DNA of 64,000 nucleotides from an uncultured bacterium (lineage in GTDB: Bacteria; Patescibacteriota; Minisyncoccia; Phycocordibacterales; UBA9973). Position 1 is the stretch's first letter; each line of letters begins with the position of its first letter. Shown here one piece after another: positions 18,446-61,493 of this stretch. Under the pieces are notes generated by a model. That model worked only from the letters and a program-made list of their open reading frames with translations, made no database searches and was not told where the DNA came from. Both the position numbers and the translations under genes were made by a program. The stretch lies in NCBI GenBank assembly GCA_903838985.1, contig CAIMAO010000002.1, positions 1,844-65,843 on the forward strand. Direction: 5' to 3'.

Positions 18446-19318
18446 CTATTTTTTGTGAATATTTATGTTTTTAGAAATATTTATCCAATCTATAAGCGAA
18501 AGTTCCTCTGCTCTTTTGTTTCCTAATGTTTTTATAAGATTTTCATCTATGTAATTTGAGTTTTTAATTAGATTTTTTAGGTTTGAAGAGAGTTTTTTAC
18601 GTTTATGAGCAAAACCAGCACGGACCACTTCCCAAAAAAAGTCTTCATTTGCGTTGTTTTCTATGAAAGTTCTCCTAGAAATATTTTTTATTGCAATTAC
18701 TGCTGAATCTACAGCCGGTTCTGGTGAAAAATATCGTGATGGCACTTTTGTTATTAGTTTTGGTTCCCCATAGGCTTTTATTGAGATTGAAAGAATACTC
18801 TCCTTCCCATTACGTGCCACTATTCTTTTGGCTACTTCGTGTTGCACCATTAGAATCATCATTTCTGGCTGATTTTTTTCTGTTAAAAACTTTTTAAAAA
18901 TTGCACCAGTAATGTTGTATGGAATGTTTGCAATTATTTTATAATCAAAATCTGGATAGCCCTTTCTATTTTGAGCTTCCCGAGGGTCCCACCCGGTAAT
19001 CCGAGAAGGGCGCAGGGACGAAAAATTGGAAGAGATATCCAGATTTAAAATATCTTCTTCAAGCAAAATTAATTTTTTTTCAGTAATTTCTTTTGCAAAT
19101 TTTTCTTGAAGGAACTGAAATAAATTTTTATCTTTTTCAATCGCTATTATACAATTACTTTTTTCTAAAAGTTTTTCTGTTAATGCTCCCTTTCCTGGAC
19201 CAATTTCTAAAATAATATCGTCGGGTGATATTTCTCCGGCTTCAACAATTTTTTTAATCACTAAGTTTGATTTTAAAAAATTTTGGCCCAATGATTTTTT
19301 TGCTTTATGTATTTGCAT
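18446..19318 (-). CDS. rsmA: 16S rRNA (adenine1518-N6/adenine1519-N6)-dimethyltransferase RsmA/KsgA
   Basis: 290 aa. SAM-binding motif ILEIGPGKGALT, and IANIPYNIT matching the KsgA NxPY catalytic motif. The ORF stays intact across an inserted GC-rich element. Confidence 0.85.
   Translation of the reverse strand: MQIHKAKKSLGQNFLKSNLVIKKIVEAGEISPDDIILEIGPGKGALTEKLLEKSNCIIAIEKDKNLFQFLQEKFAKEITEKKLILLEEDILNLDISSNFSSLRPSRITGWDPREAQNRKGYPDFDYKIIANIPYNITGAIFKKFLTEKNQPEMMILMVQHEVAKRIVARNGKESILSISIKAYGEPKLITKVPSRYFSPEPAVDSAVIAIKNISRRTFIENNANEDFFWEVVRAGFAHKRKKLSSNLKNLIKNSNYIDENLIKTLGNKRAEELSLIDWINISKNINIHKK
18975..19025. repeat. GC-rich palindromic element (family 1) inserted in-frame within rsmA
   Basis: Core cccgagggtcccacccggtaatccgagaagggcgcagggacg is the reverse complement of the cores at 29448..29489 and 56287..56330. 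In the minus-strand reading frame it encodes ...SLRPSRITGWDPRE... Confidence 0.8.
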
Positions 19319-19322
19319 TTTT

Positions 19323-21455
19323 TTAAATATAAATTGTTTTTATTCCACCCTTCTCTCCTTCCTTTTCTATTATATCAACTGGTATGTCTCCAATGAAATC
19401 AGATAGTGCATTTATCTGTCGTGAGCCAAAGATGGTGCGGAAATTTGCAAAAGATAAAAATAATTTTTCTTTTGCGCGAGTGAGCGCAACGTAAAAAAGT
19501 CTTCGTTCTTCTTCTTTGTCTTCACCACTTTTTGCTTCATTTGATTTTTGATGAGGAAAGAGTCCATCTTCGAGTCCTGTGATAAAAACGTATTTAAATT
19601 CCAGACCTTTTGAAGCGTGAACTGTCATAAGCTTTACAGCATTTGTTTCATTTTTTTTATTTTCTGTAATCATTATTGAATCTTGGTCTGAAGCGAGTGA
19701 TGCATCTTCTAAAAGTTTTTCTATGCCCATTCCATTTTCCAAATTGTCATATTTTAAGGCCAAAGTTGCCAATTCCTTAATGTTTTCAAGCCTTTCTAGG
19801 TCTTCTTCCCCACCAGACAAAAGCTCTGTTTCTATGCCAGATTTTTTAACTGTAAATTTTATTACTTCAGACGCTTTTCCATTTTCTATTTTTTCTTTTA
19901 TTTCTTCTAACGTTTTATAAAAATTATCAACTTTGATTCTTACTTTTATTGGTAGACTTTCTTTTTCACCAGCAAAAATTTTTACAAGGGTCACTTTTCC
20001 TATTCCCCTTGTGGGGAAATTTATTATTCTTTTTATATCAGAAAGACTTTCAGGATTAAGTGCAGCACGAAGATACGCGAGTGTATCTTTTATTTCTTTT
20101 CTTTCAAAAAATTTTACACCAAGCACTTGATATGGGATGTTATATCTTAACATTGCTTCTTCTAACGCACGAGATTGAAAATTTGCTCGATACAAAATTG
20201 CTATGTCAGACAAAATATTTTTGGGTTCTTTTGCAAAACTAGTGATGCTTTTTCGAGCTGGTCTGGTTGAGCCCTTCGGACTTAATGAGGGCGACCCGAG
20301 GACCCGAGAAAAAGCATCGCTAGCTTTGCTATCTTGAAGCTCTAAAATTTTTATTGCGACGAAATCTGCTTCATCTCCCTCATCTAGCGCCTCATAGAAA
20401 CCGATTTTCTCCCCTACTCCATTTTTAGTAAACAAATTTTTATCTGGCCTATATTTGTTTTTCTTTATTATTTCATTTGCTGCCTCTAATATGTTTTGTG
20501 TTGATCTATAATTTTCTTCAAGTAAAACTATTTTTGCATTTGGGTAATCTTTTTCAAAACTTAAAATATTTTTTAAGTTTGCCCCACGCCAAGAATATAT
20601 ATTTTGATCCGCATCACCCACGACACAGATATTTTTATTTTTTTCAGAAAGCAAACGTGACATTAAATATTGTACTTCGTTCGTATCCTGATACTCATCA
20701 ATATGAATATATTGCCATTTATCTTGATACATTTCTCTTATTTCCTTGTTTTCCTTTAATAGTTTTGTTGCTTTTAAAAGTAAGTCGTCAAAATCTAATG
20801 AATTTTCTTTCATTTTTTTCTTTTCATAAATACTCCAAACTTGAGCCACTATTTTATTTAGATAGTTTCCACTACCACTTGGGCCATTGGCAATCTCTTC
20901 ATAATCTGCAAGATGTGTAAATTTACCTTTTTCTCGGCTGATTATATTTTTTATTTTTTTAGGATCATACTGTTTTGGGTCAACTCCTATTTCTTTTAAA
21001 GCTTCTTTTATAAGGGTTGTAGAGTCTGACTCATCTAAAATAGTGAAATGTCTAGTCAAACCCAATATTCTCGCATTTTCCTTTATAATATATACTCCCA
21101 ACGAGTGAAAAGTGCTAACAAACGGATGGCTGTTTACTTCGTTGGTAATGCTTTTTTGAATGGTCTGGCCGGGATAGGGACCCGGAGAACCGAGGACCTG
21201 AGAAAAAGCATTACCAACGAAGTTTACTTTTATTGCTTCCCTAATCCTCTCTTGCATTTCCTTTGCTGCTTTGTTTGTGAAAGTCACAGCTAAAATTTTC
21301 TCTGGAGCGACGCCATTTTTTATTAAATTTAGTATTCTATGTGTGATTGTTTTGGTCTTTCCTGCTCCAGCTCCTGCAACGATAAGAAGCGGCCCTTCCA
21401 TATGAATAGCCGCTTCTCTCTGTTTTTCATTTAGTCCTGACAGATGGTCTTCCAT
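19323..21455 (-). CDS. pcrA: ATP-dependent DNA helicase PcrA/UvrD (superfamily 1)
   Basis: 710 aa. Walker A AGAGAGKTKT. UvrD-family helicase motifs throughout. Carries two in-frame GC-rich element insertions. Confidence 0.9.
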   Translation of the reverse strand: MEDHLSGLNEKQREAAIHMEGPLLIVAGAGAGKTKTITHRILNLIKNGVAPEKILAVTFTNKAAKEMQERIREAIKVNFVGNAFSQVLGSPGPYPGQTIQKSITNEVNSHPFVSTFHSLGVYIIKENARILGLTRHFTILDESDSTTLIKEALKEIGVDPKQYDPKKIKNIISREKGKFTHLADYEEIANGPSGSGNYLNKIVAQVWSIYEKKKMKENSLDFDDLLLKATKLLKENKEIREMYQDKWQYIHIDEYQDTNEVQYLMSRLLSEKNKNICVVGDADQNIYSWRGANLKNILSFEKDYPNAKIVLLEENYRSTQNILEAANEIIKKNKYRPDKNLFTKNGVGEKIGFYEALDEGDEADFVAIKILELQDSKASDAFSRVLGSPSLSPKGSTRPARKSITSFAKEPKNILSDIAILYRANFQSRALEEAMLRYNIPYQVLGVKFFERKEIKDTLAYLRAALNPESLSDIKRIINFPTRGIGKVTLVKIFAGEKESLPIKVRIKVDNFYKTLEEIKEKIENGKASEVIKFTVKKSGIETELLSGGEEDLERLENIKELATLALKYDNLENGMGIEKLLEDASLASDQDSIMITENKKNETNAVKLMTVHASKGLEFKYVFITGLEDGLFPHQKSNEAKSGEDKEEERRLFYVALTRAKEKLFLSFANFRTIFGSRQINALSDFIGDIPVDIIEKEGEKGGIKTIYI
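20233..20329. repeat. GC-rich palindromic element (family 3), copy in pcrA, flanked by a 22-bp locus-specific inverted repeat
   Basis: Flanks gcaaaactagtgatgctttttc / gaaaaagcatcgctagctttgc. Core ggtctggttgagccc...gggcgacccgaggaccc. Encodes ...FSRVLGSPSLSPKGSTRPARKSITSF... in frame. Confidence 0.8.
21137..21222. repeat. GC-rich palindromic element (family 3), second copy in pcrA
   Basis: Flanks cttcgttggtaatgctttttt / gaaaaagcattaccaacgaag. Core gaatggtctggccgggatagggacccggagaaccgaggacctga. Encodes FVGNAF-SQVLGSPGPYPGQTIQ-KSITNE in frame. Confidence 0.8.
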
Positions 21456-28351: not shown

Positions 28352-29422
28352 TTGTCTGGGGCGTTTTTTGCGCCTCTGACCACCAACGCTAGTTTCTTGT
28401 CTTCTATCCTAGGGACGGATGCATCGGCAAGTAATGTCGACTCTCTAAACTCTACTCAATCTCTTAAAAACTCTCAAAACATGGCACTCCTGCAAGCAGA
28501 CGTTTCCCCTATTTCTGCCTCAGATGATAAAAGTAAAGATGGTGATGTTAGTGATGATTCCGACATTAATATTTTATCTGAAAACGCTCTTCTCCCTTCT
28601 ACTAGTCATAAGAGTGTTGGAGATGATACTGATGCTGGAGACTCCTATTCTGATCAAATAAGTGTTTATGTGATAAGAAAAGGCGACTCCATTACACAAA
28701 TAGCTGATATGTTTGGTGTTTCTACAAAAACAATTCTAGCAGCTAACAATATGAAAAAGGGTGACAAGCTTGTAGAGGGCAATGTGCTCTTTATTTTGCC
28801 TGTTTCTGGTCTAGAACATACCATAACCAAAGGACAAACCTTGAAAAGTATAGCTAAAATATACAAAATAGATGCCATAGATATAGCTCAATTTAACGGC
28901 ATTACTGAAGATACAAAGCTTGTTGTTGGAGATAAAATATTGATTCCAGGTGCTGATATGATAGATGAAGGTGGTGATAAACCAGCTTCAAACTTAAGTA
29001 GTGCTGCGGCTAAAGATAAAAACTATTACGATACACACAAAGTTAGAAGTCTCTCTGGTTACTTTATAAATCCAGTTCCTACTGGTCGCAAGACTCAAGG
29101 TTTGCATGGTCCAGGACATCGTGGTATAGATATCGGAGCACCGACAGGCACACCTATTTATGCTTCTGCTGGTGGAACGGTTATTCTTGCAAACACAGGC
29201 TGGAGTGGAGGTTATGGAAATATGGCTATAATCCAGCACGCAAATGGTACAAAGACACTCTATGGTCATATGTCTAAACTTGCTACATACACAGGAGATA
29301 CTGTTAAACAAGGTGAAGTAATAGGTTATGTGGGTTCTACAGGCCATTCCACCGGGCCACACTTACACTTTGAAGTATTCAATGCTAAAAACCCAGGCTC
29401 TGATTGGTCTTGGGCAAACTAA
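28352..29422 (+). CDS. LysM-domain M23 family metallopeptidase (peptidoglycan endopeptidase)
   Basis: Two LysM repeats (YVIRKGDSITQIADMFGVS..., HTITKGQTLKSIAKIYKID...). M23 motifs HRGIDIGAPTGTPIYA and GHSTGPHLHFEV. Confidence 0.85.
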   Translation: MSGAFFAPLTTNASFLSSILGTDASASNVDSLNSTQSLKNSQNMALLQADVSPISASDDKSKDGDVSDDSDINILSENALLPSTSHKSVGDDTDAGDSYSDQISVYVIRKGDSITQIADMFGVSTKTILAANNMKKGDKLVEGNVLFILPVSGLEHTITKGQTLKSIAKIYKIDAIDIAQFNGITEDTKLVVGDKILIPGADMIDEGGDKPASNLSSAAAKDKNYYDTHKVRSLSGYFINPVPTGRKTQGLHGPGHRGIDIGAPTGTPIYASAGGTVILANTGWSGGYGNMAIIQHANGTKTLYGHMSKLATYTGDTVKQGEVIGYVGSTGHSTGPHLHFEVFNAKNPGSDWSWAN

Positions 29423-29429
29423 AAAAACA

Positions 29430-29508
29430 AAAAGCACAAAATTTTTCGTCCTGCGCCCTTCCCGGATTACCGGGTGGGACCCTCGGACAGAAAAAATTTT
29501 GTGCTTTT
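29430..29508. repeat. GC-rich palindromic element (family 1) nested in an 18-bp inverted repeat; probable terminator hairpin after the M23 peptidase gene
   Basis: Flanks aaaagcacaaaatttttc / gaaaaaattttgtgctttt. Core gtcctgcgcccttcccggattaccgggtgggaccctcggaca. Confidence 0.8.
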
Positions 29509-29708
29509 TGTTTATAATTTTCTCCTAAAAACTAGAGCTTAGTTAAATAAAAGAGAGCACGACCTTGACTTATGTCTATCAAGGAAAGGAGAGAGATTTG
29601 TACTCTCTCCTATTTATACCAAGAATAACTCTTGATAATTTTTAAGCTCTAGTTTTTAAAAGAAAATAATTTCTCGCAATAGCCCAACAAAATTAATTTT
29701 GTTGGGCT

Positions 29709-29773
29709 AACAACGAGGTCAAACAGATTTTATTTGTTTGACCAGTATTTATGTTAACCCTAACCCGTTGTGC
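29709..29773. repeat. 65-bp structured direct repeat, copy 1 (3' of cassette 1)
   Basis: Identical to 31057..31121. Predicted fold: outer stem caacgagg/cccgttg enclosing hairpin tcaaacag-attttatt-tgtttga. Confidence 0.85.
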
Positions 29774-29990
29774 TTTCTCAGCGTGGAGGCTCTGCTTCCT
29801 CTTGGCTCACCATTTTAAAGAAAATGGTGACAAACTTTTTACCCGTCCTTTTATTCCTATGGATTTTTAGGAAACATTTTTCACCAGATGTGAAAAATGA
29901 ATGTACTGTTGCGGTGTTCCGCTTTTGTCTGGAGAGGTAAACAGTTTTACCTCGAGGTTTTACACCCAGACTGCACCCATCTCTCCTTAA

Positions 29991-30323
29991 TTACCCTAAG
30001 GTAACTAAGAGCCACTTGATAGTGGCACCTTCTGGTAAGGTCGAACAACCTTCCGGAAGGCGAGGCCCGACATACTGGCCTACAAGAGCTTTGTCATCTT
30101 TTTTAAGGACGACATTTACTCTGTTTGCCGGCACGTCTACTCCCAAGACATTACTGAACACATTAGCTGTGTCAGCATGTCCGACTGCTGACATAGCGTC
30201 AGTAGCGAGAGTCTTAGCCTGCTCTAAAGAGATTTCCTCAACATGAATATCTATCGGAAAGACAGAAATCATATTGAGGGAGATCGCGTTCAAAATAAAC
30301 ATGAACGTTTTCTCCTCTAGCAA
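29991..30323 (-). CDS. Hypothetical protein in GC-rich cassette 1 (110 aa)
   Basis: ORF with ~45% GC against a ~33% background. ...ISLEQAKTLATDAMSAVGHADTANVFSNVLGVDVPANRVNVVLKKDDKALVGQYVGPRLPEG... It may resemble the DUF1874/STIV-B116-like family, but this is unverified. Confidence 0.5.
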   Translation of the reverse strand: MLEEKTFMFILNAISLNMISVFPIDIHVEEISLEQAKTLATDAMSAVGHADTANVFSNVLGVDVPANRVNVVLKKDDKALVGQYVGPRLPEGCSTLPEGATIKWLLVTLG

Positions 30324-30484
30324 CTACTATCTCCTCAACTTCCTCGCAGTCACACTACGATTTATATGAGTATTTAAGTTACTAGCTCTGTTGATTTTAA
30401 AGGTTGATCAACTAACCGCTTCCAACTCACTTGAGTCAGAAGTATATCCCGCAGAAACCACTGCGTTGCTAGGGTTTTTAATTT

Positions 30485-30856
30485 TTAGTCTGTGTAACGA
30501 TTAATTCTGATCATTACATCATCTGGCATATCAGCCAGTTTAATTTCCGCGCGGAATCCCCTTGGGTCGCTATAAAAGGAAGATAAAATAATTTTTTCCC
30601 CTAAAGAATATAAAATTAAATATTCTTTATTTTCCAACACCTGAGATTCTACTTTTCCTCCTTCTCCCGTATAAAAAAAAGAGAAATCTTTGCAATACTT
30701 TATTTGTATTGTAAACATAGTATCTAATTCCCACATTTTTTTTTCATGGAATTCTTTCCATGAAATATCCAAAGGGAGGTTTTTAAAACCAAGACCAAAT
30801 CTTTTCAGATTTGTCTCGAAATCGAAAGCATCCATTAATTTTTGGAATATACTCAT
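30485..30856 (-). CDS. Hypothetical protein in cassette 1 (123 aa)
   Basis: ORF preceded (on the minus strand) by a strong SD ggtgaggagg and by the shared leader repeat. Confidence 0.45.
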   Translation of the reverse strand: MSIFQKLMDAFDFETNLKRFGLGFKNLPLDISWKEFHEKKMWELDTMFTIQIKYCKDFSFFYTGEGGKVESQVLENKEYLILYSLGEKIILSSFYSDPRGFRAEIKLADMPDDVMIRINRYTD

Positions 30857-30900
30857 TTTTTCCTCCTCACCATTTTACGTCCGTGAGGTAGACATTTGTT

Positions 30901-31010
30901 TTTTATGATTAGTCAGTTGTTTAAAAGTAGTTAAATAACCACACTTAAACAACTAACCAACCACAAGTAAAAAATGAAATTTACTCTCTTCTATTTAATT
31001 TTCAAAAAAC
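30901..31010 (-). promoter_or_regulatory. Shared ~110-bp 5' leader/promoter repeat, copy 1 (upstream of 30485..30856)
   Basis: About 85% identical to 34631..34746 (ttttatgat...gtttaaaagtagttaRaataaccacRcttaaacaactaaccaac...aatgaaRttt..ctct.ttc.atttaattttcaaaaaac). Both copies sit 27–44 bp upstream of a minus-strand start codon with a GGAGG-type SD. Confidence 0.6.
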
Positions 31011-31056
31011 TCGCAATGAATTTTCCATTTAATTAACCCAATCAAATGAAAAACTC

Positions 31057-31121
31057 AACAACGAGGTCAAACAGATTTTATTTGTTTGACCAGTATTTAT
31101 GTTAACCCTAACCCGTTGTGC
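31057..31121. repeat. 65-bp structured direct repeat, copy 2 (3' of cassette 2)
   Basis: Identical to 29709..29773. Confidence 0.85.
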
Positions 31122-31467
31122 CTTACGGCAGATGAGGACACAAAATTTTTATTGTAATTTTATGTTTATCCTCACGCCAAATAAATTTGACTTCCTCTTT
31201 GTTTTATCGGTAGGCATCCGACTAGTTATAAGGTCACAATCCACTTATGTAAACTCTCGGTCTACTTCTGCTAAAAGCCTAACACTCACACCTTGTCACC
31301 AACCGTATGGTATTGTGAGATGGTACATTTGTGTATTTTATGTCTATAATGTTTTCCTTACGGACGAAAAAGAATTATAGACCACGTGCACAACCAGAGA
31401 CCTCCTTATTTTTTTGATAATAATTCAATTATGGGTCTGGTAGCCCAAAAATTGTCGTTAATTAATT

Positions 31468-32841
31468 TTAGAGTTTGTTTACACCAACTCCGCCCGTACT
31501 GATCGCAAGATCAGTCAGAACTTTATTTGTACACTCAACTACAAAGGCATGCATTTTTGTACCTGTAAAATCCTTCATAGTTAAGTTTATTTTATCGTCC
31601 CCATCAGTAATAATAACGAGCTCGGGACGATAGGTGGAACCTGCTTTTATTATTTCTTCGATCCTTTGTTGCGCCAGCTTCGCGCATCCCGAGATATCTG
31701 TACTTCCACCTGAATAGTTTTTCTCGGTAAAGTGCTTGATTAACTCCTTAGCTTCAGTTGGGGTAGAGGAGTGATGTTCCTCCTTCAATGTAGTATCGAA
31801 GAGCCTTACATAAAGCTCAGCCTCTCCCTCAATCACCGCTTTTAAACGATTTATGAGGATTCCACCAGCCTTAAATATTCTCTGGCCAGATCCCATTGAT
31901 CCGGAGCAGTCTATAATAATATAAAGGAGCTGCTTCTTTTCAATGGTCGTCACTCTCTCTCTTACCATACTAGAATGAGTGACAATTCTGTATGTCCGAT
32001 AAGTGCTCGGTAGCGCCCATTCGGATTTTATCAACTTATTCATTTCGCCCGTGTGCGCTATTGGGCGGTTCCGGACACTATCACCGGCCGGATCCGGTTC
32101 TTGTTTTTTACTCTTACGCACTTGCATGCGCGTAAGTTTATCTAGATTTCTTGAAATCTGGAGCATAATCTCCTTACCTTTCAAAAAATCTTCCGCAAGT
32201 TTCATTTTTTGGAGACCGTCATCTCCTTTTCCTTCACTCGCTCCCGAACCAGTGTCCTGGTCAGGATCAAGCAGTTGTTTTTCATCTTTGGATAAAGAAT
32301 CAACTTCATCCATAAGATTATTCAGCTGCTCGCCGACTTTTTCTGACTGATCATTGTCGGTAAATATTGGTAACGGCTCTCCGGCCTCTCCACCACCTTG
32401 TCCACCTTGCTTTTTTGACAAAAGTTTCAGTAGACTCATGGCTTGTTCAAGTGGAGAACTACCAGGGAAACAATTAAGATCAATTGTCTGCAAAAAATCG
32501 CAAACGTTTTGATGATACCTCATCTGTTCCCGAGTTCTACCTTCGATTGCTTCAAACCGACTCTTGGTTGATACTTCAGTCTTTGATTTTTTATCGCGAC
32601 GGAGGTATTTCCAATTACCGGAAGTGTCGGCAGCAGGTAAAGTTTCCTCAACATTTTTCCTTACAACTTGTTGATAGGATGATGGAGGATTTACCTGACC
32701 GCCAGCAGCCAAATTACATAAGTCCGCGACTAAGTCCCTTGAAAAGGATTTAACGCCAACCTTATCTCCAACTTCCCGCATTTCTTCCGCACTAGGCGAA
32801 AGATAAGTTACGGGAGGAGAAGTTCGAAATGTAAATTGCAT
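31468..32841 (-). CDS. VWA-domain protein, CoxE-like (von Willebrand factor A with MIDAS motif)
   Basis: 457 aa. C-terminal VWA with ...LLYIIIDCSGSMGSGQ... (DxSxS MIDAS) and ...VIITDGDD.... The N-terminal ~250 aa is charged/low complexity, as in CoxE-family partners of MoxR ATPases. GC-rich. Confidence 0.75.
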   Translation of the reverse strand: MQFTFRTSPPVTYLSPSAEEMREVGDKVGVKSFSRDLVADLCNLAAGGQVNPPSSYQQVVRKNVEETLPAADTSGNWKYLRRDKKSKTEVSTKSRFEAIEGRTREQMRYHQNVCDFLQTIDLNCFPGSSPLEQAMSLLKLLSKKQGGQGGGEAGEPLPIFTDNDQSEKVGEQLNNLMDEVDSLSKDEKQLLDPDQDTGSGASEGKGDDGLQKMKLAEDFLKGKEIMLQISRNLDKLTRMQVRKSKKQEPDPAGDSVRNRPIAHTGEMNKLIKSEWALPSTYRTYRIVTHSSMVRERVTTIEKKQLLYIIIDCSGSMGSGQRIFKAGGILINRLKAVIEGEAELYVRLFDTTLKEEHHSSTPTEAKELIKHFTEKNYSGGSTDISGCAKLAQQRIEEIIKAGSTYRPELVIITDGDDKINLTMKDFTGTKMHAFVVECTNKVLTDLAISTGGVGVNKL

Positions 32842-34630: not shown

Positions 34631-34746
34631 TTTTATGATGAAAGTTGGTTAGTTATTTAAAAGTAGTTAGAATAACCACGCTTAAACAACTAACCAACTA
34701 TATTATTTGGAAATAATGAATTTTTTCTATTCAATTTTCAAAAAAC
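34631..34746 (-). promoter_or_regulatory. Shared 5' leader/promoter repeat, copy 2 (upstream of 34136..34603)
   Basis: See 30901..31010. Confidence 0.6.
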
Positions 34747-41022: not shown

Positions 41023-41093
41023 GCGGTTATGGTTTAGTGGTAGAACACGTCCTTGCCAAGGATGAGACGGGAGTTCGATTCTCCCTAGCCGCA
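41023..41093 (+). tRNA. tRNA-Gly (anticodon GCC)
   Basis: gcggttatggtttagtggtagaacacgtccttgccaaggatgagacgggagttcgattctccctagccgca. Anticodon loop ttgccaa. Confidence 0.85.
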
Positions 41094-41100
41094 CAGAATA

Positions 41101-42698
41101 TAGTGAATCTAATAGAAGAGAAAAACTTAATAAACAAGATTCCAAAAGAAGTTTCATTTGTAACGGACACGCTTGAAAAGGGTGGTTTTGAGGCATACCT
41201 TGTAGGTGGTTGCGTGCGTGATTTACTAATGGACAGGGAACCAAAAGATTGGGACATAACAACTAATGCGAAACCAGATCAGATTATCGGACTTTTTGAA
41301 AAAACTGTTTATGAGAATGATTTTGGCACTGTAATGGTTATTCAAGAAGATGTTTCACGAGAAACATTACGTCAAATAGAGGTTACGCCATATAGAGTTG
41401 AAGCAAAATATACTGATTTTAGACATCCTGATGAAATAAAGTTCAGTGATAATATAGAAGATGATCTTAAGAGACGTGATTTTACCATAAACGCCTTGGC
41501 TCTAAATTCTAAAGGACATATGATAGACATGTTTGATGGCTTAAAGGACATTAAAGACAAGATGTTAAAAGCAGTAGGGGAACCAGATGATCGTTTTCAA
41601 GAGGATGCACTTAGAATGTTGCGCGCTGTGCGTATTGCTTTACAACTTGGTTTTTCTGTGTCTTATGAAAGTAGTGAAAGTATTTTAAAAAATTCTGATT
41701 TGATAAAAAAAATATCACCAGAAAGAATTCGTGACGAATTTTCAAAAATAATAATGTCTGCGAATCCATCTGTCGGAATTGTAATGTTGCAAAAATTTGG
41801 TTTATTAAAAAATATAATTCCTGAGCTTGAAGAGGGAATTGATTGTGAACAATCGGGTGAACATATTTATGATGTTTGGAATCATTTACTACATGCACTG
41901 CAACATGCTGCTGACAAAGATTGGTCATTTGAAGTAAGAATAGCAGCGTTATTTCATGATATTGGAAAACCTAGATCTAGGAGGGCTGCAGAAAAAACTT
42001 CGCCTGATACTTTTTCTCAGGTCCTCGGGTCGCCCGCACAAAATTCTAAAAAAGAGCGGGCTCAACCAGACCATTCGCAAAAGTATACAGGCGAAGTTTT
42101 TTTGAAAAAGAAATACACATTCTATGGGCATGAAGTGATAGGAGAGAGAATGACAAAAAAAATATTGGAGCGTTTAAAATTTTCCAAAAAAGAAACAGAA
42201 TTAATTTTAAAACTTATTCGCAATCATATGTTTTTCTCTGACACAGAACTTATAACTCTTTCTGCCGTGCGAAGAATCATTGCGAAAGTTGGAGCAGAAA
42301 ATATTTGGTTGTTAATGAATGTTCGTGAGTGTGACAGAGTAGGTATGAAGAAGAAAGAAGCACCATATCGTTTGCGTAAATATTTTGCAATGATAGAAGA
42401 AGCCTTGCACGACCCCATATCTGTCGGACAGCTTAAGATTGATGGAGAATTTATGATAAAAAATCTTGGTATAAAGCCAGGCCCTAGAATGGGATGGATT
42501 TTGCACGCATTGCTTGAAGAAGTTCTCGATGATTCAAGTAAAAATACAGAAGAGCATCTTTCAGAATTAGTGAAATCACTCAATATGCTCGGAGATGAAG
42601 AGTTGAGAACATTGGGTGAAAGAGGGAAAGAAAAAAAGGAAGAATTAGAAGAGCAAGAAGTAGAAAAATTACATTCTAAACATGGAGTTAGGAAATAA
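41101..42698 (+). CDS. cca: CCA-adding tRNA nucleotidyltransferase (polyA polymerase family with HD domain)
   Basis: NTase motif LVGGCVRDLLM...DWDI, HD domain ...LFHDIGK.... The ORF as listed (41037) would overlap the tRNA-Gly, so the real start is probably the GTG near 41101 or further downstream. Contains an in-frame GC-rich element. Confidence 0.8.
41994..42112. repeat. GC-rich palindromic element (family 3) inserted in-frame in cca, flanked by a ~20-bp locus-specific inverted repeat
   Basis: Flanks acttcgcctgatactttttctc / gcaaaagtatacaggcgaagttttt. Core aggtcctcgggtcgcccgc...gggctcaaccagacc is the reverse complement of the pcrA copies. Encodes ...FSQVLGSPAQNSKKERAQPDHSQ... Confidence 0.8.
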
Positions 42699-48662: not shown

Positions 48663-48679
48663 AATGTTTATATTAACAT

Positions 48680-48790
48680 AAACTTGTGAAACTAATGTTT
48701 TTTCACCACGAAAATCTTTTGCTAAAGATTTTCTCTGTCCGTCGCCGTCGCTCCTACCAAGGGTTCAAAAACATTAGTTTCACAAGTTTA
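48680..48790. repeat. Perfect 23-bp inverted repeats (aaacttgtgaaactaatgttttt / aaaaacattagtttcacaagttt) enclosing a 65-bp segment, between xerC stop and xth start
   Basis: The enclosed segment carries an AT hairpin (gaaaatcttttgctaaagattttc) plus gtccgtcgccgtcgctcc, the same architecture as the yidD/jag repeat. It overlaps the xerC stop codon and is likely a terminator or MITE-like element. Confidence 0.75.
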
Positions 48791-49705
48791 TTTGCGGCTA
48801 TGAAATTTCTTATGCACTTCCAGTAATTGTTTGTCAGTAATGTGTGTATAAATTTGAGTTGTAGAGATATTTGAATGTCCGAGCATCATTTGCACACTCC
48901 TTATGTCTGCACCGTTTTGCAGTAAATCAGTTGCGAAGGAATGACGGATGATATGTGGTGTCACTTTTTTTGATATGCCTGCTTTTATCGCGTAATATTT
49001 TACAATACGTTCAAGTGAACGGGGTGTTAATCGTGTGGCTTTGCTTTTTGATATTTTTGAAAGTTGAATGAACATCGCTTCTTCCATATCTTTCCTTTTT
49101 GCTAAATATTCCTTAATTGCTTTTTTTGCGGTATCAGATAAAAAAACTACACGCACTTTTTCTCCTTTTCCTCTGATAGAAAATTCGCCTTTTGATAAAT
49201 CTAAATCTTTATTTAATGAAGAAAGTTCTGATACACGAAGTCCTGTAGAAAAAAATAATTCAAGGATTGCTTTGTCTCGAAGATTTTTTAAATCAGTTCC
49301 ATTTGGGCCGGAGAGAAGCCTACCCAATTCTTCTCCTGTAATTAAATCTAAACTCCTTTCTTTTATTTTTGCTAATTCTATTCTATCAGGGGAGAGGGCA
49401 GAGATTTCACGTTTGATTAAATATTTTAAAAAAACACGAAGTGCAATCAAATAATAATTTTGAGTATTTTTTTTCATCGTTGCACTTATTTGTCCTCGTA
49501 CTTTTGTGCCGGATTGTCTGTTTAAAAAAAGTCTGAATTCTCGCACTTTTTCATCTGTGATATCTTTTATTTTTTCTGTTTTACTAAATTTAAAAAAGCG
49601 AGTTAAATACCTTTCATAATTTTCTACAGTTTTTAAACTTGAACCTTTTTCAATTTCTAGATATTCCAGAAATTCTCTTTTGTATTTTTCTATCTCAGAC
49701 GCCAT
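48788..49705 (-). CDS. xerC: Tyrosine site-specific recombinase XerC/XerD
   Basis: 305 aa. C-terminal ...RHSFATDLLQNGADIRSVQMMLGHSNISTTQIYTHI... with the catalytic R..H..R..Y signature. Confidence 0.85.
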   Translation of the reverse strand: MASEIEKYKREFLEYLEIEKGSSLKTVENYERYLTRFFKFSKTEKIKDITDEKVREFRLFLNRQSGTKVRGQISATMKKNTQNYYLIALRVFLKYLIKREISALSPDRIELAKIKERSLDLITGEELGRLLSGPNGTDLKNLRDKAILELFFSTGLRVSELSSLNKDLDLSKGEFSIRGKGEKVRVVFLSDTAKKAIKEYLAKRKDMEEAMFIQLSKISKSKATRLTPRSLERIVKYYAIKAGISKKVTPHIIRHSFATDLLQNGADIRSVQMMLGHSNISTTQIYTHITDKQLLEVHKKFHSRK

Positions 49706-49792
49706 TTATATATTTTAGCATAAATACAAAATATTGTGCGACATATACACATAGATCTTGCAATTTTGTTGGCTTTATGCTAAGATATAAAC

Positions 49793-50056
49793 ATGTTAAC
49801 AACAAAGAAAAAGCAAACAGTTATAAAGAAAAATCAGATTCATGATAAGGATACGGGCTCTTCTGCTGTACAAGTGGCTATTTTGTCTACACAAATAGAT
49901 GAATTAGCAAAACATTTAAAGAAACATAAAAAAGATAATAATTCTCGCCGTGGACTTATCAAAATGGTTGCAGACAGACGCACACATTTGAAATATTTAG
50001 AAAGAAAAGATAAGACTCAATACAATGCAGTAATGAAGAAAATGAGTTTAGCATAA
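49793..50056 (+). CDS. rpsO: 30S ribosomal protein S15
   Basis: 87 aa. ...HLKKHKKDNNSRRGLIKMVADRRTHLKYL... Confidence 0.9.
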   Translation: MLTTKKKQTVIKKNQIHDKDTGSSAVQVAILSTQIDELAKHLKKHKKDNNSRRGLIKMVADRRTHLKYLERKDKTQYNAVMKKMSLA

Positions 50057-50628: not shown

Positions 50629-50717
50629 AATTTTATTAGTTAATCGGTTCGCGTTCGGACAAAAAGTAGTGTTCTATAAATATAGGAACAATACTGTAGT
50701 CTGGACACGAACTCAAA

Positions 50718-50795
50718 GTTTTCTTGTAAAAAATTTTTGAAACTGCGCCCTCGGAGTCATAAAGACAGGGGACCCACACGTTTCTTAAATTTTTT
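50718..50795. repeat. GC-rich palindromic element (family 2) within a locus-specific hairpin, between NYN gene and pnp
   Basis: Core ctgcgccctcggagtcataaagacaggggacccaca, similar to 54318..54358. Flanks aaaaatttttgaaa / tttcttaaatttttt. Confidence 0.75.
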
Positions 50796-50810
50796 ACAGG
50801 AAAACTAAGT

Positions 50811-54271: not shown

Positions 54272-54298
54272 TTTTGTTTAATTTTTATTATGTAAAAT

Positions 54299-54378
54299 CA
54301 CAAAACTTAAAATTTTTGCGCCTTCGCCCTCGGAGTCAGAAGGACAGGGGACCCACGACGCTAAAAATCTTAAGTTTT
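54299..54378. repeat. GC-rich palindromic element (family 2) within a 17-bp inverted repeat, downstream of dksA
   Basis: Flanks caaaacttaaaattttt / aaaaatcttaagttttg. Core gcgccttcgccctcggagtcagaaggacaggggacccacgacgc. Confidence 0.75.
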
Positions 54379-54400
54379 GTGATTTAAAATTACCATAATT

Positions 54401-55966
54401 ATGAGTTTCGCGAGAGTTTATTCGGCACAAGTAAACTTGCTTTCTGGACAAATCGTAACCATCGAGGTTGATTTGTCACGTGGTTTGCATGCTTTTAATA
54501 TAGTCGGCTTGCCAGATAAAGCTGTGGGTGAATCGAAAGACAGAGTGAGCGGTGCTATTAAAAATTCTGGTTTTAAATCTCCAAAAGCTAAAAATCAAAA
54601 AATAGTTGTTTCTCTTTCACCGGCTGATCTTAAAAAAGAAGGGCCATTTTTTGATCTTGCAATTGCGCTTTCTTATCTTCTCGCTTCAGATGAATTAAAA
54701 TTTGATCCAAGTAAAAAGATTTTTTTAGGAGAGCTTGGTCTTGATGGAACATTGCGAAGCATAAGGGGTGCATTGCCACTCGTGATGGAAGCAAAGAAAG
54801 CAGGATTTGAAGAAGTTTATTTACCAAAAGAAAATGCAATTGAAGCAGCGCTCGTCGAAGGTATAAAAATATTTGGAGCAAGTAGTTTGAAAGAAGTCGT
54901 AGAGCATTTAGATGAAGTCAAAGTAAAAGCTGAGAATAAAGAAGAATATGAAAAAAGAAAAAAAATAGTAGTTCAACCCAAAACAAAAATAATTTATAAA
55001 AAAGAAAAAAGTGGCGCAGATTTTTCTGATATTAAGGGACAAGAAGGTGCAAAAAGAGGACTTGAAATAGCAGCAGCCGGTGGACACAACATCGCTATGT
55101 ATGGGCCACCAGGCACAGGCAAGACGATGCTTGCCAGAGCATTCTCACAACTTTTGCCAGATTTAGATATTGAAGAAGTTTTAGAAATTACAGGGATACA
55201 TTCTGTGGCAGGAGCGACACAAGGCGAACTCGTTTCTTCTCCACCATTCCGCAGCCCACATCACACATCTTCTTATGTATCTATTATAGGTGGAGGAACA
55301 TATCCAAAACCAGGGGAAGTGACACTCGCGCACAAAGGTGTCCTATTTTTAGATGAATTTCCAGAATTTGAAAAGAGAGTTTTGGAATCTTTACGACAAC
55401 CACTCGAAGACAATATTGTTTGTATTTCTCGTGCGAAAGGCACAGCCACTTTTCCATCTAATTTTATTTTAGTTGCAGCGATGAATCCTTGTCCTTGTGG
55501 CAATGCTGGCAATAAACAAAAAGCTTGTATCTGTAAGCCTTCAGATTTAGATAGATATAAAAGAAAATTATCTGGACCTATAATGGACAGAGTGGATCTT
55601 TGGGTATCTGTTGGTAATGTTGATTATAAAAAGTTGAGCGAAGAGGGAACAGGAGAAAAAAGTGAAAAGATAAAACAGAGAATAATCAATGCAAGAGGGA
55701 TTCAAGCAGAAAGATTTAAAAAACTTGGTAAAAATATTAAAACAAATAGTGAGATGAATGCCAAAGATTTGACTACTATAGTGAAGTTGAAAGATGAAGT
55801 GAGAAATTTATTAGATAATAGTGCAGAACATTTAGCTTTGTCTGCTCGGGCATATCATAGAGTCATAAAGATAGCCCGCACAATAGCGGACTTAGAAAAT
55901 TCTCTTGAAATAAATTCAAATCACATTTTAGAAGCTATTCAATATAGGCCGAAGGTGAATAATTAG
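54401..55966 (+). CDS. comM: Mg-chelatase-like AAA+ protein YifB/ComM
   Basis: 521 aa. N-terminal Lon-like domain, Walker A MYGPPGTGKTM, Walker B VLFLDEFPEF, C-terminal ChlI-like domain. Confidence 0.85.
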   Translation: MSFARVYSAQVNLLSGQIVTIEVDLSRGLHAFNIVGLPDKAVGESKDRVSGAIKNSGFKSPKAKNQKIVVSLSPADLKKEGPFFDLAIALSYLLASDELKFDPSKKIFLGELGLDGTLRSIRGALPLVMEAKKAGFEEVYLPKENAIEAALVEGIKIFGASSLKEVVEHLDEVKVKAENKEEYEKRKKIVVQPKTKIIYKKEKSGADFSDIKGQEGAKRGLEIAAAGGHNIAMYGPPGTGKTMLARAFSQLLPDLDIEEVLEITGIHSVAGATQGELVSSPPFRSPHHTSSYVSIIGGGTYPKPGEVTLAHKGVLFLDEFPEFEKRVLESLRQPLEDNIVCISRAKGTATFPSNFILVAAMNPCPCGNAGNKQKACICKPSDLDRYKRKLSGPIMDRVDLWVSVGNVDYKKLSEEGTGEKSEKIKQRIINARGIQAERFKKLGKNIKTNSEMNAKDLTTIVKLKDEVRNLLDNSAEHLALSARAYHRVIKIARTIADLENSLEINSNHILEAIQYRPKVNN

Positions 55967-56259: not shown

Positions 56260-56269
56260 ATGTCGTTTC

Positions 56270-56350
56270 ATTTCTTTAAATTTTTTGTCCCTGCGTCCTT
56301 CTCGGAATACCGAGTGGGACCCTCGGGAAGCAAAAAATTCAAAGAAATTA
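56270..56350. repeat. GC-rich palindromic element (family 1) upstream of lexA
   Basis: Core gtccctgcgtccttctcggaataccgagtgggaccctcggga. Flanks ctttaaattttttg / caaaaaattcaaag. Confidence 0.8.
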
Positions 56351-56357
56351 TACTCAA

Positions 56358-61178: not shown

Positions 61179-61310
61179 ATAGCTATATTATATTTATCAT
61201 CGCTTTTTGTCAAAAATCATAAAAAAATAATGCTTTTTCACGGCTCGCACTCTAACCTGAATTTGGTTAACTAATTTAAAGTAGTGTATGCCGAAAAAAG
61301 CATTATTTTT

Positions 61311-61493
61311 TTATTTTATTGTAGATTCTACAGCACTAGAATTTTGATTATCTTGAGCCTTTTTTATATCTTTTATTTTTCCATAGAAAAGATATATTCC
61401 ACCAATAATTAGAATTATAATAATAACTATTGAACCAAAAAGTGCGCCGTTTGACTTTTTATCTGCTTCCATAGTTTTTATTCCTACTCGCAA
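61311..61493 (-). CDS. Small membrane protein (60 aa)
   Basis: ORF with a single TM helix (SIVIIIILIIGGIYLFY). Confidence 0.35.
   Translation of the reverse strand: MRVGIKTMEADKKSNGALFGSIVIIIILIIGGIYLFYGKIKDIKKAQDNQNSSAVESTIK

Follow-up and report, generated by a model that had tools for sequence, protein, structure and literature searches.

How a GC-rich hairpin of 111 nt can sit in frame inside the gene of an essential enzyme, and what keeps its arms paired there, is the question raised by the cca gene of an uncultured bacterium of the Patescibacteria, of Nomurabacteria/Paceibacterota type (contig CAIMAO010000002.1, positions 1,844 to 65,843; this whole stretch of 64 kb is called the window, and positions are counted from its first letter). 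The hairpin (41992-42102) was found to belong to a repeat family, named F3 here, of which the window holds three copies. It is read, with a probability of about two in three, as a translated selfish palindromic repeat that resembles the Rickettsia palindromic elements (RPE) and whose stem is kept paired by template switching between inverted repeats.

The gene of the CCA-adding enzyme was placed at 41103..42698 of the plus strand from the open reading frame (ORF), Pfam and Protein Data Bank (PDB) matches, the tRNA gene upstream and the consensus of orthologues. Its product is a class II CCA-adding enzyme (PDB CCA-adding enzymes matched at E = 4e-51) with the Pfam domains PolyA_pol head, RNA-binding, HD and tRNA_NucTran2_2. 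Because a tRNA-Gly(GCC) gene sits just upstream (41023-41094) and is overlapped by the mechanical ORF start at 41037, the start codon is probably the GTG at 41103, 9 nt past the end of the tRNA. The hairpin lies in the HD domain, between the invariant motifs HDIGKP and TFYGHE; TFSQVLGSPAQNSK is the peptide expected if 41992-42102 is read through, and the peptide quoted in an initial annotation of this DNA was indeed recovered in the cca frame, free of stop codons and inside the Pfam HD-domain match. The gap from HDIGKPQTF to GKVTFYEH measures 42 residues in the window Cca versus about 4 in the distant solved homologue 3WFP, and about 34-37 residues would be added by the hairpin. Among 120 orthologous proteins and 80 DNA-level loci (L120-L199; 81 alleles with that of the window), this stretch was the single hypervariable segment of an otherwise 75-87% identical Cca, and 14 of the 81 alleles are short at the site (11-19 codons). 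An AlphaFold2 model built from 41 sequences had a mean predicted local distance difference test score (pLDDT) of 79.6; residues 293-344 fell below 50, flanked by confident helices at 278-286 and 346-359, and the loop carrying the hairpin, between two helices of the HD domain, is accordingly predicted to be disordered. The comparison with orthologues and with a structure, proposed in the initial annotation, shows the hairpin to be extra sequence in a tolerant loop and an insertion relative to the homologues; the refuting condition named there, presence of the insertion in Cca of distant bacteria, did not refute it.

Folded as RNA, 41985-42120 reached -48.7 kcal/mol versus -23.8 ± 3.4 kcal/mol for dinucleotide shuffles (z = -7.35; 0 of 200 as good). 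The parts of the hairpin, all on the plus strand, follow one another thus: the left arm of the outer stem, AAAAAACTTCGCCTGATACTTT (41992..42013; assigned from pairing and orthologue comparison); the 5' conserved core box, TTCTCAGGTCCTCGG (42014..42028), identical in the three window copies bar one R position; an apical module of the GTCGCC...GGCTCAA subtype (42029..42065; assigned from the fold and from a list of module variants), which is one of several interchangeable apical modules of F3 and in which GCCCGC (42032-42037) pairs with GCGGGC (42056-42061) around an A-rich loop; the 3' conserved core box, CCAGACCA (42066..42073), whose GACC pairs with GGTC of the 5' box; an unpaired junction, ttcgca (42074..42079; assigned by comparison of the family junctions); and the right arm, AAAGTATACAGGCGAAGTTTTTT (42080..42102), complementary to 41992-42013 with one bulge. 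In the arms 22 of 23 positions are paired, and the pairing is prolonged outward by an A-run and a T-run. In the family the junction reads ttcRaa where the 5' box has TCA, and (g)ctcRaa where it has TCG.

An element had been announced at 41994-42112; the folding hairpin is real, with the exact span 41992-42102. It had been said to be bounded by a perfect inverted repeat of about 20 bp unique to the locus: the repeat is present, but its arms, acttcgcctgatactttt and aaaagtatacaggcgaagt, measure 18 and 19 nt and contain one bulged base, and while each F3 copy has arms of its own, the inner ~12 bp are common to orthologous cca copies. The shared inner part of the left arm reads tcgcctgatac; its outer A-run part is private to the window genome and overlaps the host codons Ala-Glu-Lys.

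The two other copies in the window lie in the gene of a pcrA/uvrD-type helicase (19323..21455, minus strand, identified by Pfam); both were recognised by sequence match and fold, on the minus strand. Copy A (21136..21223), in frame after motif Ia towards the 5' end of pcrA, combines a perfect private stem of 21 bp with the short 'TTCTCCGGGTCCCTATCCCGG' apical module and encodes the peptide FVGNAFSQVLGSPGPYPGQTIQKSITNEV. Copy B (20233..20329), in frame midway through the gene, has the apical subtype of the cca copy and the peptide SDAFSRVLGSPSLSPKGSTRPARKSITS. All three share the core (TTCTCRGGTCCTCGG ... CCAGACCA). The 20-nt core GGTCCTCGGGTCGCCCGCAC has one further match in the window, inside pcrA, where 0 are expected by chance, and the 16-nt 3' box GGGCTCAACCAGACCA has two exact matches; the assignment of the cca element to the family of the pcrA copies thus stands. 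Its core, described earlier as the reverse complement of theirs, is so in window coordinates; as pcrA lies on the minus strand, the three copies have one orientation relative to their genes, and they are read in one frame (FSQVLGSP, FSRVLGSP and FSQVLGSP). Orthologues of pcrA lacking copy A and orthologues lacking copy B were seen, and both sites show hotspot behaviour like that of the cca site. An identical PcrA with both inserts was found on 11 public-assembly contigs, three of which, those shown, come from three separate ENA assemblies, and an assembly artefact is therefore unlikely. One PcrA orthologue (P0181, 1045 aa) carries Pfam PF14890, which we take to be an intein-type domain; if it is, PcrA of this clade would host inteins besides hairpin repeats.

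F3 was collected by a scan for TTCTCRGGTCCTCGG-N(8-38)-CCAGACCA in one genome per species, which gave at least 119 loci (L001-L119); family statistics are drawn from the matches listed (120 copies) unless a smaller subset is given. The matches listed are all from metagenome-assembled genomes (MAGs) of Patescibacteria, a few with evidently wrong labels, and F3 is a non-autonomous GC-rich palindromic repeat family of the Nomurabacteria/Paceibacterota (Patescibacteria, Candidate Phyla Radiation, CPR). A copy consists of a private left arm, a short T-run, the 5' box, a swappable apical module, the 3' box, 5-7 unpaired bases, an A-run and a private right arm, and is 62-148 nt long (median 93). The outer stem, typically 14-25 bp, has a sequence private to each locus, its complementarity being kept: the arms of one copy pair over a median of 19 nt (range 9-40, 91% identity), versus 6 nt when arms are swapped between copies. 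Since arms pair within a copy and not across copies, the ends are not conserved terminal repeats. When 60 copies were aligned without gaps, 80.5% of the cells in the stem were standard pairs versus 48.4% after shuffling (slid registers, 37-60%); both-sided changes occurred in 386 cells versus 145 in shuffles and in 16 of 18 stem columns, and the covariation score was 0.715 versus 0.177 (0 of 500 shuffles as high).

The idea that the arms are diverged terminal repeats carried along by the element was rejected: similar arms occur mostly at orthologous sites, sometimes flipped. There are two exceptions to private arms: the inner ~10 nt of the arms shared by the window hairpins at 423-538 and 1847-1957, and an intergenic subfamily with similar imperfect arms, two neighbouring copies of which occur in L087 (4760-5345, in the order ftsK, F3 copy, gene of a 114-aa membrane protein, F3 copy, recA). 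The two copies in L087 and the intergenic copies in L002, L010, L028, L050, L094 and L101 have similar imperfect arms with recurring mismatches, in contrast to the private arms of genic copies. Direct repeats of at least 4 nt stand at the foot of 40% of the listed hairpins versus 27% of mismatched controls, a weak enrichment; a target-site duplication of fixed length or sequence was not found at the hairpin feet, and TTC or TAAA flanks recur in a subset.

Long ORFs read through 94 of the 120 listed copies (78%), in both orientations and all frames, and every one of the 94 is open and in frame: 74 copies are read in sense (54, 13 and 7 in the three frames) and 20 in antisense. The remaining 26 lie outside long ORFs; five of these were tested, and all five stand between complete, unrelated genes (e.g., tpiA|pgk and rpsB|tsf), so that no gene is split there, and the notion of non-ORF copies as gene splitters was rejected for these five. 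Host genes include pcrA, cca, polA, dnaE, ligA, uvrA, uvrB, ileS and leuS, in agreement with the earlier claim that the family is tolerated in several essential genes; one linker of polA hosts F3 in both orientations. Besides their hairpin inserts, the isoleucyl-tRNA synthetase of L078:1213-4821 contains a His_Phos_1 domain (residues 541-706) and the leucyl-tRNA synthetase of L106:4206-7187 a NUDIX domain (410-531), both being whole-domain insertions.

The cca codon itself is an insertion hotspot. Hairpins of 23-78 codons, all open and in frame, occupy 67 of the 81 alleles and represent at least 7 named core families besides unclassified ones. The occupants are F3 with the apical module of the window copy, F3 with the short module of pcrA copy A in another frame, F3 in reverse orientation (L145, L160 and L177), at least five other named core families, and several unclassified or single-allele cores. 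Double or nested elements are present in L171, L128 and L131, and mosaics with a hairpin inside the remains of another in L155 and L141. The same DNA is read at this site in other frames (NLSGPRFSGSLSQPDH, LSGPRFSG) or flipped (LARSGRDRDPEIRGP), versus FSQVLGSP. The hairpin families are interspersed on the Cca similarity tree, and the nearest relatives of the window Cca carry other families. Some short alleles, L195 and L142 among them, retain nothing of the stem but its outermost bases and resemble remnants of deletions.

The window copy is orthologous to those in L121, L123, L125, L129 and L163. No change is seen in the core boxes of these six alleles (18 of 18 and 13 of 13 positions identical), as against 62% identity at synonymous third positions of the host gene; the F3 core is conserved beyond the neutral rate. 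The mobility proposed in the initial annotation therefore applies to the family over evolutionary time and not to this cca copy, which is no fresh insertion, what is recognisably the same hairpin being present in cca of at least five other Nomurabacteria at that synonymous divergence. The inner arm (~12 bp) is recognisably shared by the six alleles, with compensatory changes; in the window genome rewriting is confined to the outermost ~8 bp, on both arms, which are private to it. These outermost 8 bp fit the idea that one arm is host original and the other its inverted copy, and orthologues of pcrA site A without an insert suggest that both arms are extra sequence there.

Cores were also found to be inverted in place. 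The orthologous intergenic loci L041:3960-4270 and L100:5230-5540 have a mean column identity of 87% over the aligned stretch, with higher values in the flanks; their arms (~26 nt) match bar a 1-nt indel and a 2-nt indel in the right arm, and the core of one is the reverse complement of that of the other. Since the arms were kept and the core was reversed, the core must have been inverted in place, and such inversion explains the occurrence of both orientations at the cca and polA sites.

From these results the following course of events is proposed. The cca hairpin is most probably transcribed and translated together with the gene, its residues being added to a surface loop; only those states of the element that are in frame and free of stops would survive in an essential gene, and the element would persist because the loop accepts almost any open peptide, leaving the activity of the enzyme presumably unaffected. 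Intramolecular template switching or recombination between the arms would keep the stem paired, would extend it into flanking host codons and would occasionally flip the core. New elements would land preferentially inside old hairpins; in this proposal that is why the cca codon is a hotspot and why cores there are nested or replaced. Template switching is put forward as the maintaining process because a private covarying stem and in-place inversion match its known products: two reports describe that it creates and maintains perfect hairpins (PMC8794818) and that it homogenises the arms of inverted repeats and inverts spacers (PMC8604942).

Among the closest known counterparts are the RPE, in-frame palindromic repeats of Rickettsia genes situated at places compatible with protein folding (PMC10969869). 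Like RPE, F3 consists of hairpin repeats of ~100-150 bp that stand in frame in unrelated housekeeping genes of bacteria with small genomes, alongside several other families; both are read through as an extra peptide at fold-compatible places (PMC10969869), and F3 presents an in-frame, read-through palindrome in unrelated genes. The differences are that the F3 host lineage is CPR and not Alphaproteobacteria, that F3 ends are private to each locus with the inner core alone conserved, that F3 uses three sense frames (54, 13 and 7 copies) and 20 antisense placements instead of one conserved peptide frame, and that many families pile up at one codon here and flip in place. We know of no sequence relationship between F3 and RPE, and because all listed F3 matches are Patescibacteria MAGs, membership in RPE by descent is very unlikely. 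[quoted passage not shown] F3 is also short, non-coding by itself and multicopy, three copies lying in 64 kb; MITEs, however, have conserved terminal inverted repeats and target-site duplications, whereas F3 arms are unrelated between copies, their pairing falling from 19 to 6 nt when swapped. Long perfect locus-specific inverted repeats in functional protein-coding genes are known from mitochondria of Nematomorpha (PMC6649704). These share with F3 the locus-specific perfect arms within coding genes. Both they and hairpins generated by template switching are without a shared mobile core, whereas F3 arms flank a family-wide one; moreover, both arms encode conserved protein in Nematomorpha, while F3 arms encode dispensable loop residues.

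The folding of F3 differs between the two strands of DNA. On the TTCTCRGG strand of 119 F3 copies the arm mismatches, spread along the arms, are A.C in 77 cases versus G.T in 19 (A.C exceeds G.T in 51 copies, the reverse in 12), and of 118 copies 104 have the more stable fold on the complementary strand, the mean difference being 6 kcal/mol. At the cca site this asymmetry tracks the orientation of the element and not the gene, being flipped in the reverse-oriented L145, L160 and L177. A purely double-stranded model does not explain the asymmetry, which points to the folded form of one specific single strand as the relevant one. Among the listed copies one orientation prevails, by 74:20 inside genes and by 13:6 in the spaces between co-directional genes; a replication-strand cause of this bias is inseparable from an effect of the gene strand, as GC skew runs with the coding strand.

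Several points weigh against the reading of F3 as a translated selfish palindrome. That the element is translated is something we infer. The core is far more conserved than would be expected of a decaying selfish relic, which points to ongoing conversion or transposition, or to a function that this reading does not name. Neither the strand asymmetry nor the 74:20 bias is predicted by a double-stranded palindrome model. The mobile step is without a mechanism, since no conserved terminal repeats, consistent target duplication or candidate transposase were found, and use of the hotspot could reflect targeting and not mere tolerance. When a transposase or an integron integrase was sought near the window copies, the single recombinase found was of the Xer type (tyrosine recombinase gene at 48788-49705, minus strand; best NCBIfam models XerD, XerC and XerA), which scored 137.6 bits versus the 265-bit cut-off of the integron integrase model. 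This gene is bracketed by hairpins at 48678-48791 and 49703-49795, which could be a coincidence, given the density of hairpins in the window.

A bolder proposal, entertained tentatively, is that F3 represents a new kind of mobile DNA in which locus-specific stems serve as landing pads, and in which strand-specific template switching, or single-strand recombination, at the T-run/A-run junctions copies the conserved asymmetric cores from pad to pad and flips them. If this were true, cores would be kept identical across species; the HD loop of cca, two loops of pcrA and the linker of polA would be sites of perpetual exchange; and mobile DNA that does without terminal repeats, target duplication and transposase would be of a previously undescribed kind.

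Somewhat less probable, and unlikely in our estimate, is that the hairpins are sites of an active system of single-strand DNA recombination or transposition (attC-, IS200/IS605- or REP/RAYT-like). One strand would fold, an enzyme would recognise the asymmetric core, the private stem would be a scaffold and copies would be continually renewed; the difference from the selfish-palindrome reading lies mainly in movement and maintenance. Such a system would account for an asymmetry that follows the element and flips with it, with G.T wobbles kept on the one strand that is also the more stable, for a core that is invariant across diverged orthologues, and for both orientation biases. The attC sites of integrons are imperfect hairpins of conserved structure and largely free stem sequence, with a strand-specific fold that contains non-Watson-Crick positions, and F3 is also conserved in structure, free in stem and strand-specific in its folded form. 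However, conservation in attC sites lies in the outer R and L boxes, with a variable centre, whereas F3 conserves the centre and varies the outside; F3 copies have unconserved outer arms and lie inside genes, without cassettes, and neither a GTTRRRY core site nor, in the window, an integron integrase was found with them. The repetitive extragenic palindromes (REP) and the interspersed mosaic elements built of them (BIME), with their associated transposases (RAYT), are comparable as GC-rich palindromes of high copy number that are conserved across species and thought to act as single-stranded hairpins. REPs are given as 20-40 bp, extragenic and tagged by GTAG or CGTC (PMC3733652), whereas F3 is 62-148 nt long and mostly intragenic (78% of listed copies); inspection by eye revealed no GTAG/CGTC tag in the window copies or among those listed. 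Against an active system of this sort stand the ordinary Xer-type nature of the sole recombinase of the window, below integron-integrase cut-offs, the failure to find a conserved cleavage tetranucleotide, an R-box or a target duplication in the copies, and the old, vertically inherited appearance of most copies.

Still less probable is a functional mRNA structure through which cca and pcrA are regulated, such as a pause in translation, a site of decay or a hairpin bound by protein. The very strong fold, the covarying stem, the core conserved at the nucleotide level and the preference for sense orientation would all suit such a role, but the mRNA strand folds less well in the common orientation, having A.C where the antisense strand has G.T. 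Moreover, 20 of the listed copies in ORFs are antisense, copies flip in place, and 14 of the 81 cca alleles are without any hairpin while others carry unrelated cores. A scan of the window with Rfam 15 at gathering thresholds returned four tRNAs and nothing else, and a permissive scan of 41940-42170 gave microRNA-hairpin noise alone (E = 0.3-8.5).

Two further explanations are already disfavoured and highly improbable. The mobile GC-rich clusters of yeast mitochondria are a precedent for ribosome bypass, and a compact GC-rich hairpin inside essential genes of an AT-rich genome could likewise be an intervening sequence absent from the protein, by such bypass or by excision of RNA and re-ligation; removal would, however, lift the constraint on frame, yet all 94 listed genic copies and all 67 occupied cca alleles are in frame, the five tested non-ORF copies lie between complete genes and not in split ones, and neither take-off and landing codons that match nor a hit to a ribozyme or an intron was found. 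Equally improbable is an adaptive insertion whose added loop functions in the HD domain, for although FSQVLGSP and AQPDHSQKH recur in several orthologues, the same DNA is used in other frames and reversed at the same codon, unrelated families replace F3 there, 14 alleles do without it, the loop is predicted to be disordered and the same peptide occurs in unrelated proteins.

If the selfish-palindrome reading is right, in-frame selfish DNA, best documented in Rickettsia, would be extended to the CPR, whose tiny genomes were thought to be streamlined; at least 14 hairpins of this general design, with several core families, are contained in the 64-kb window. Full-text literature searches found no description of such repeats for CPR, Patescibacteria or Nomurabacteria. 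Hits recur in the same loops of core genes for replication, repair and translation, and the inserts inflate and diversify CPR proteins at predictable loops, which affects alignment, phylogeny, structure prediction and gene calling. The hairpins offer a natural system for the survival of palindromes in essential genes, combining covarying private stems, a conserved core, flipping and asymmetry, and F3 may show how template switching shapes coding sequence.

Besides the three F3 copies, the window contains at least 11 GC-rich hairpins of the same design, i.e., with a private perfect stem, T-run/A-run junctions and a conserved core, the cores being of several other families: 423-538, 1847-1957, 18941-19053, 29425-29513, 29514-29670, 48678-48791, 49703-49795, 50717-50806, 54279-54401, 56265-56353 and 61219-61314. 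The hairpin at 18941-19053 lies in frame within an rsmA/ksgA-type ORF (18446-19318), and the cores at 50717-50806 and 54279-54401 belong to the family found at the cca hotspot of L155 and L189. In 29400-31500 there is no long ORF, and a 68-nt repeat is present at 29709-29776 and 31057-31124 with 99% identity; related palindromes, TAACCAC.CTTAAACAACTAACCAAC, without an Rfam match, occur at 30893-30976 and 34643-34699. The copies at 423-538 and 1847-1957 belong to another family and share 96% identity across 90 nt, a span that takes in ~10 nt of the inner arm, and their outer arms (at least 13 nt) are perfect yet unrelated, which suggests that the outer stem forms quickly or at insertion; the copy at 1847-1957 fills exactly the gap between two convergent stop codons.

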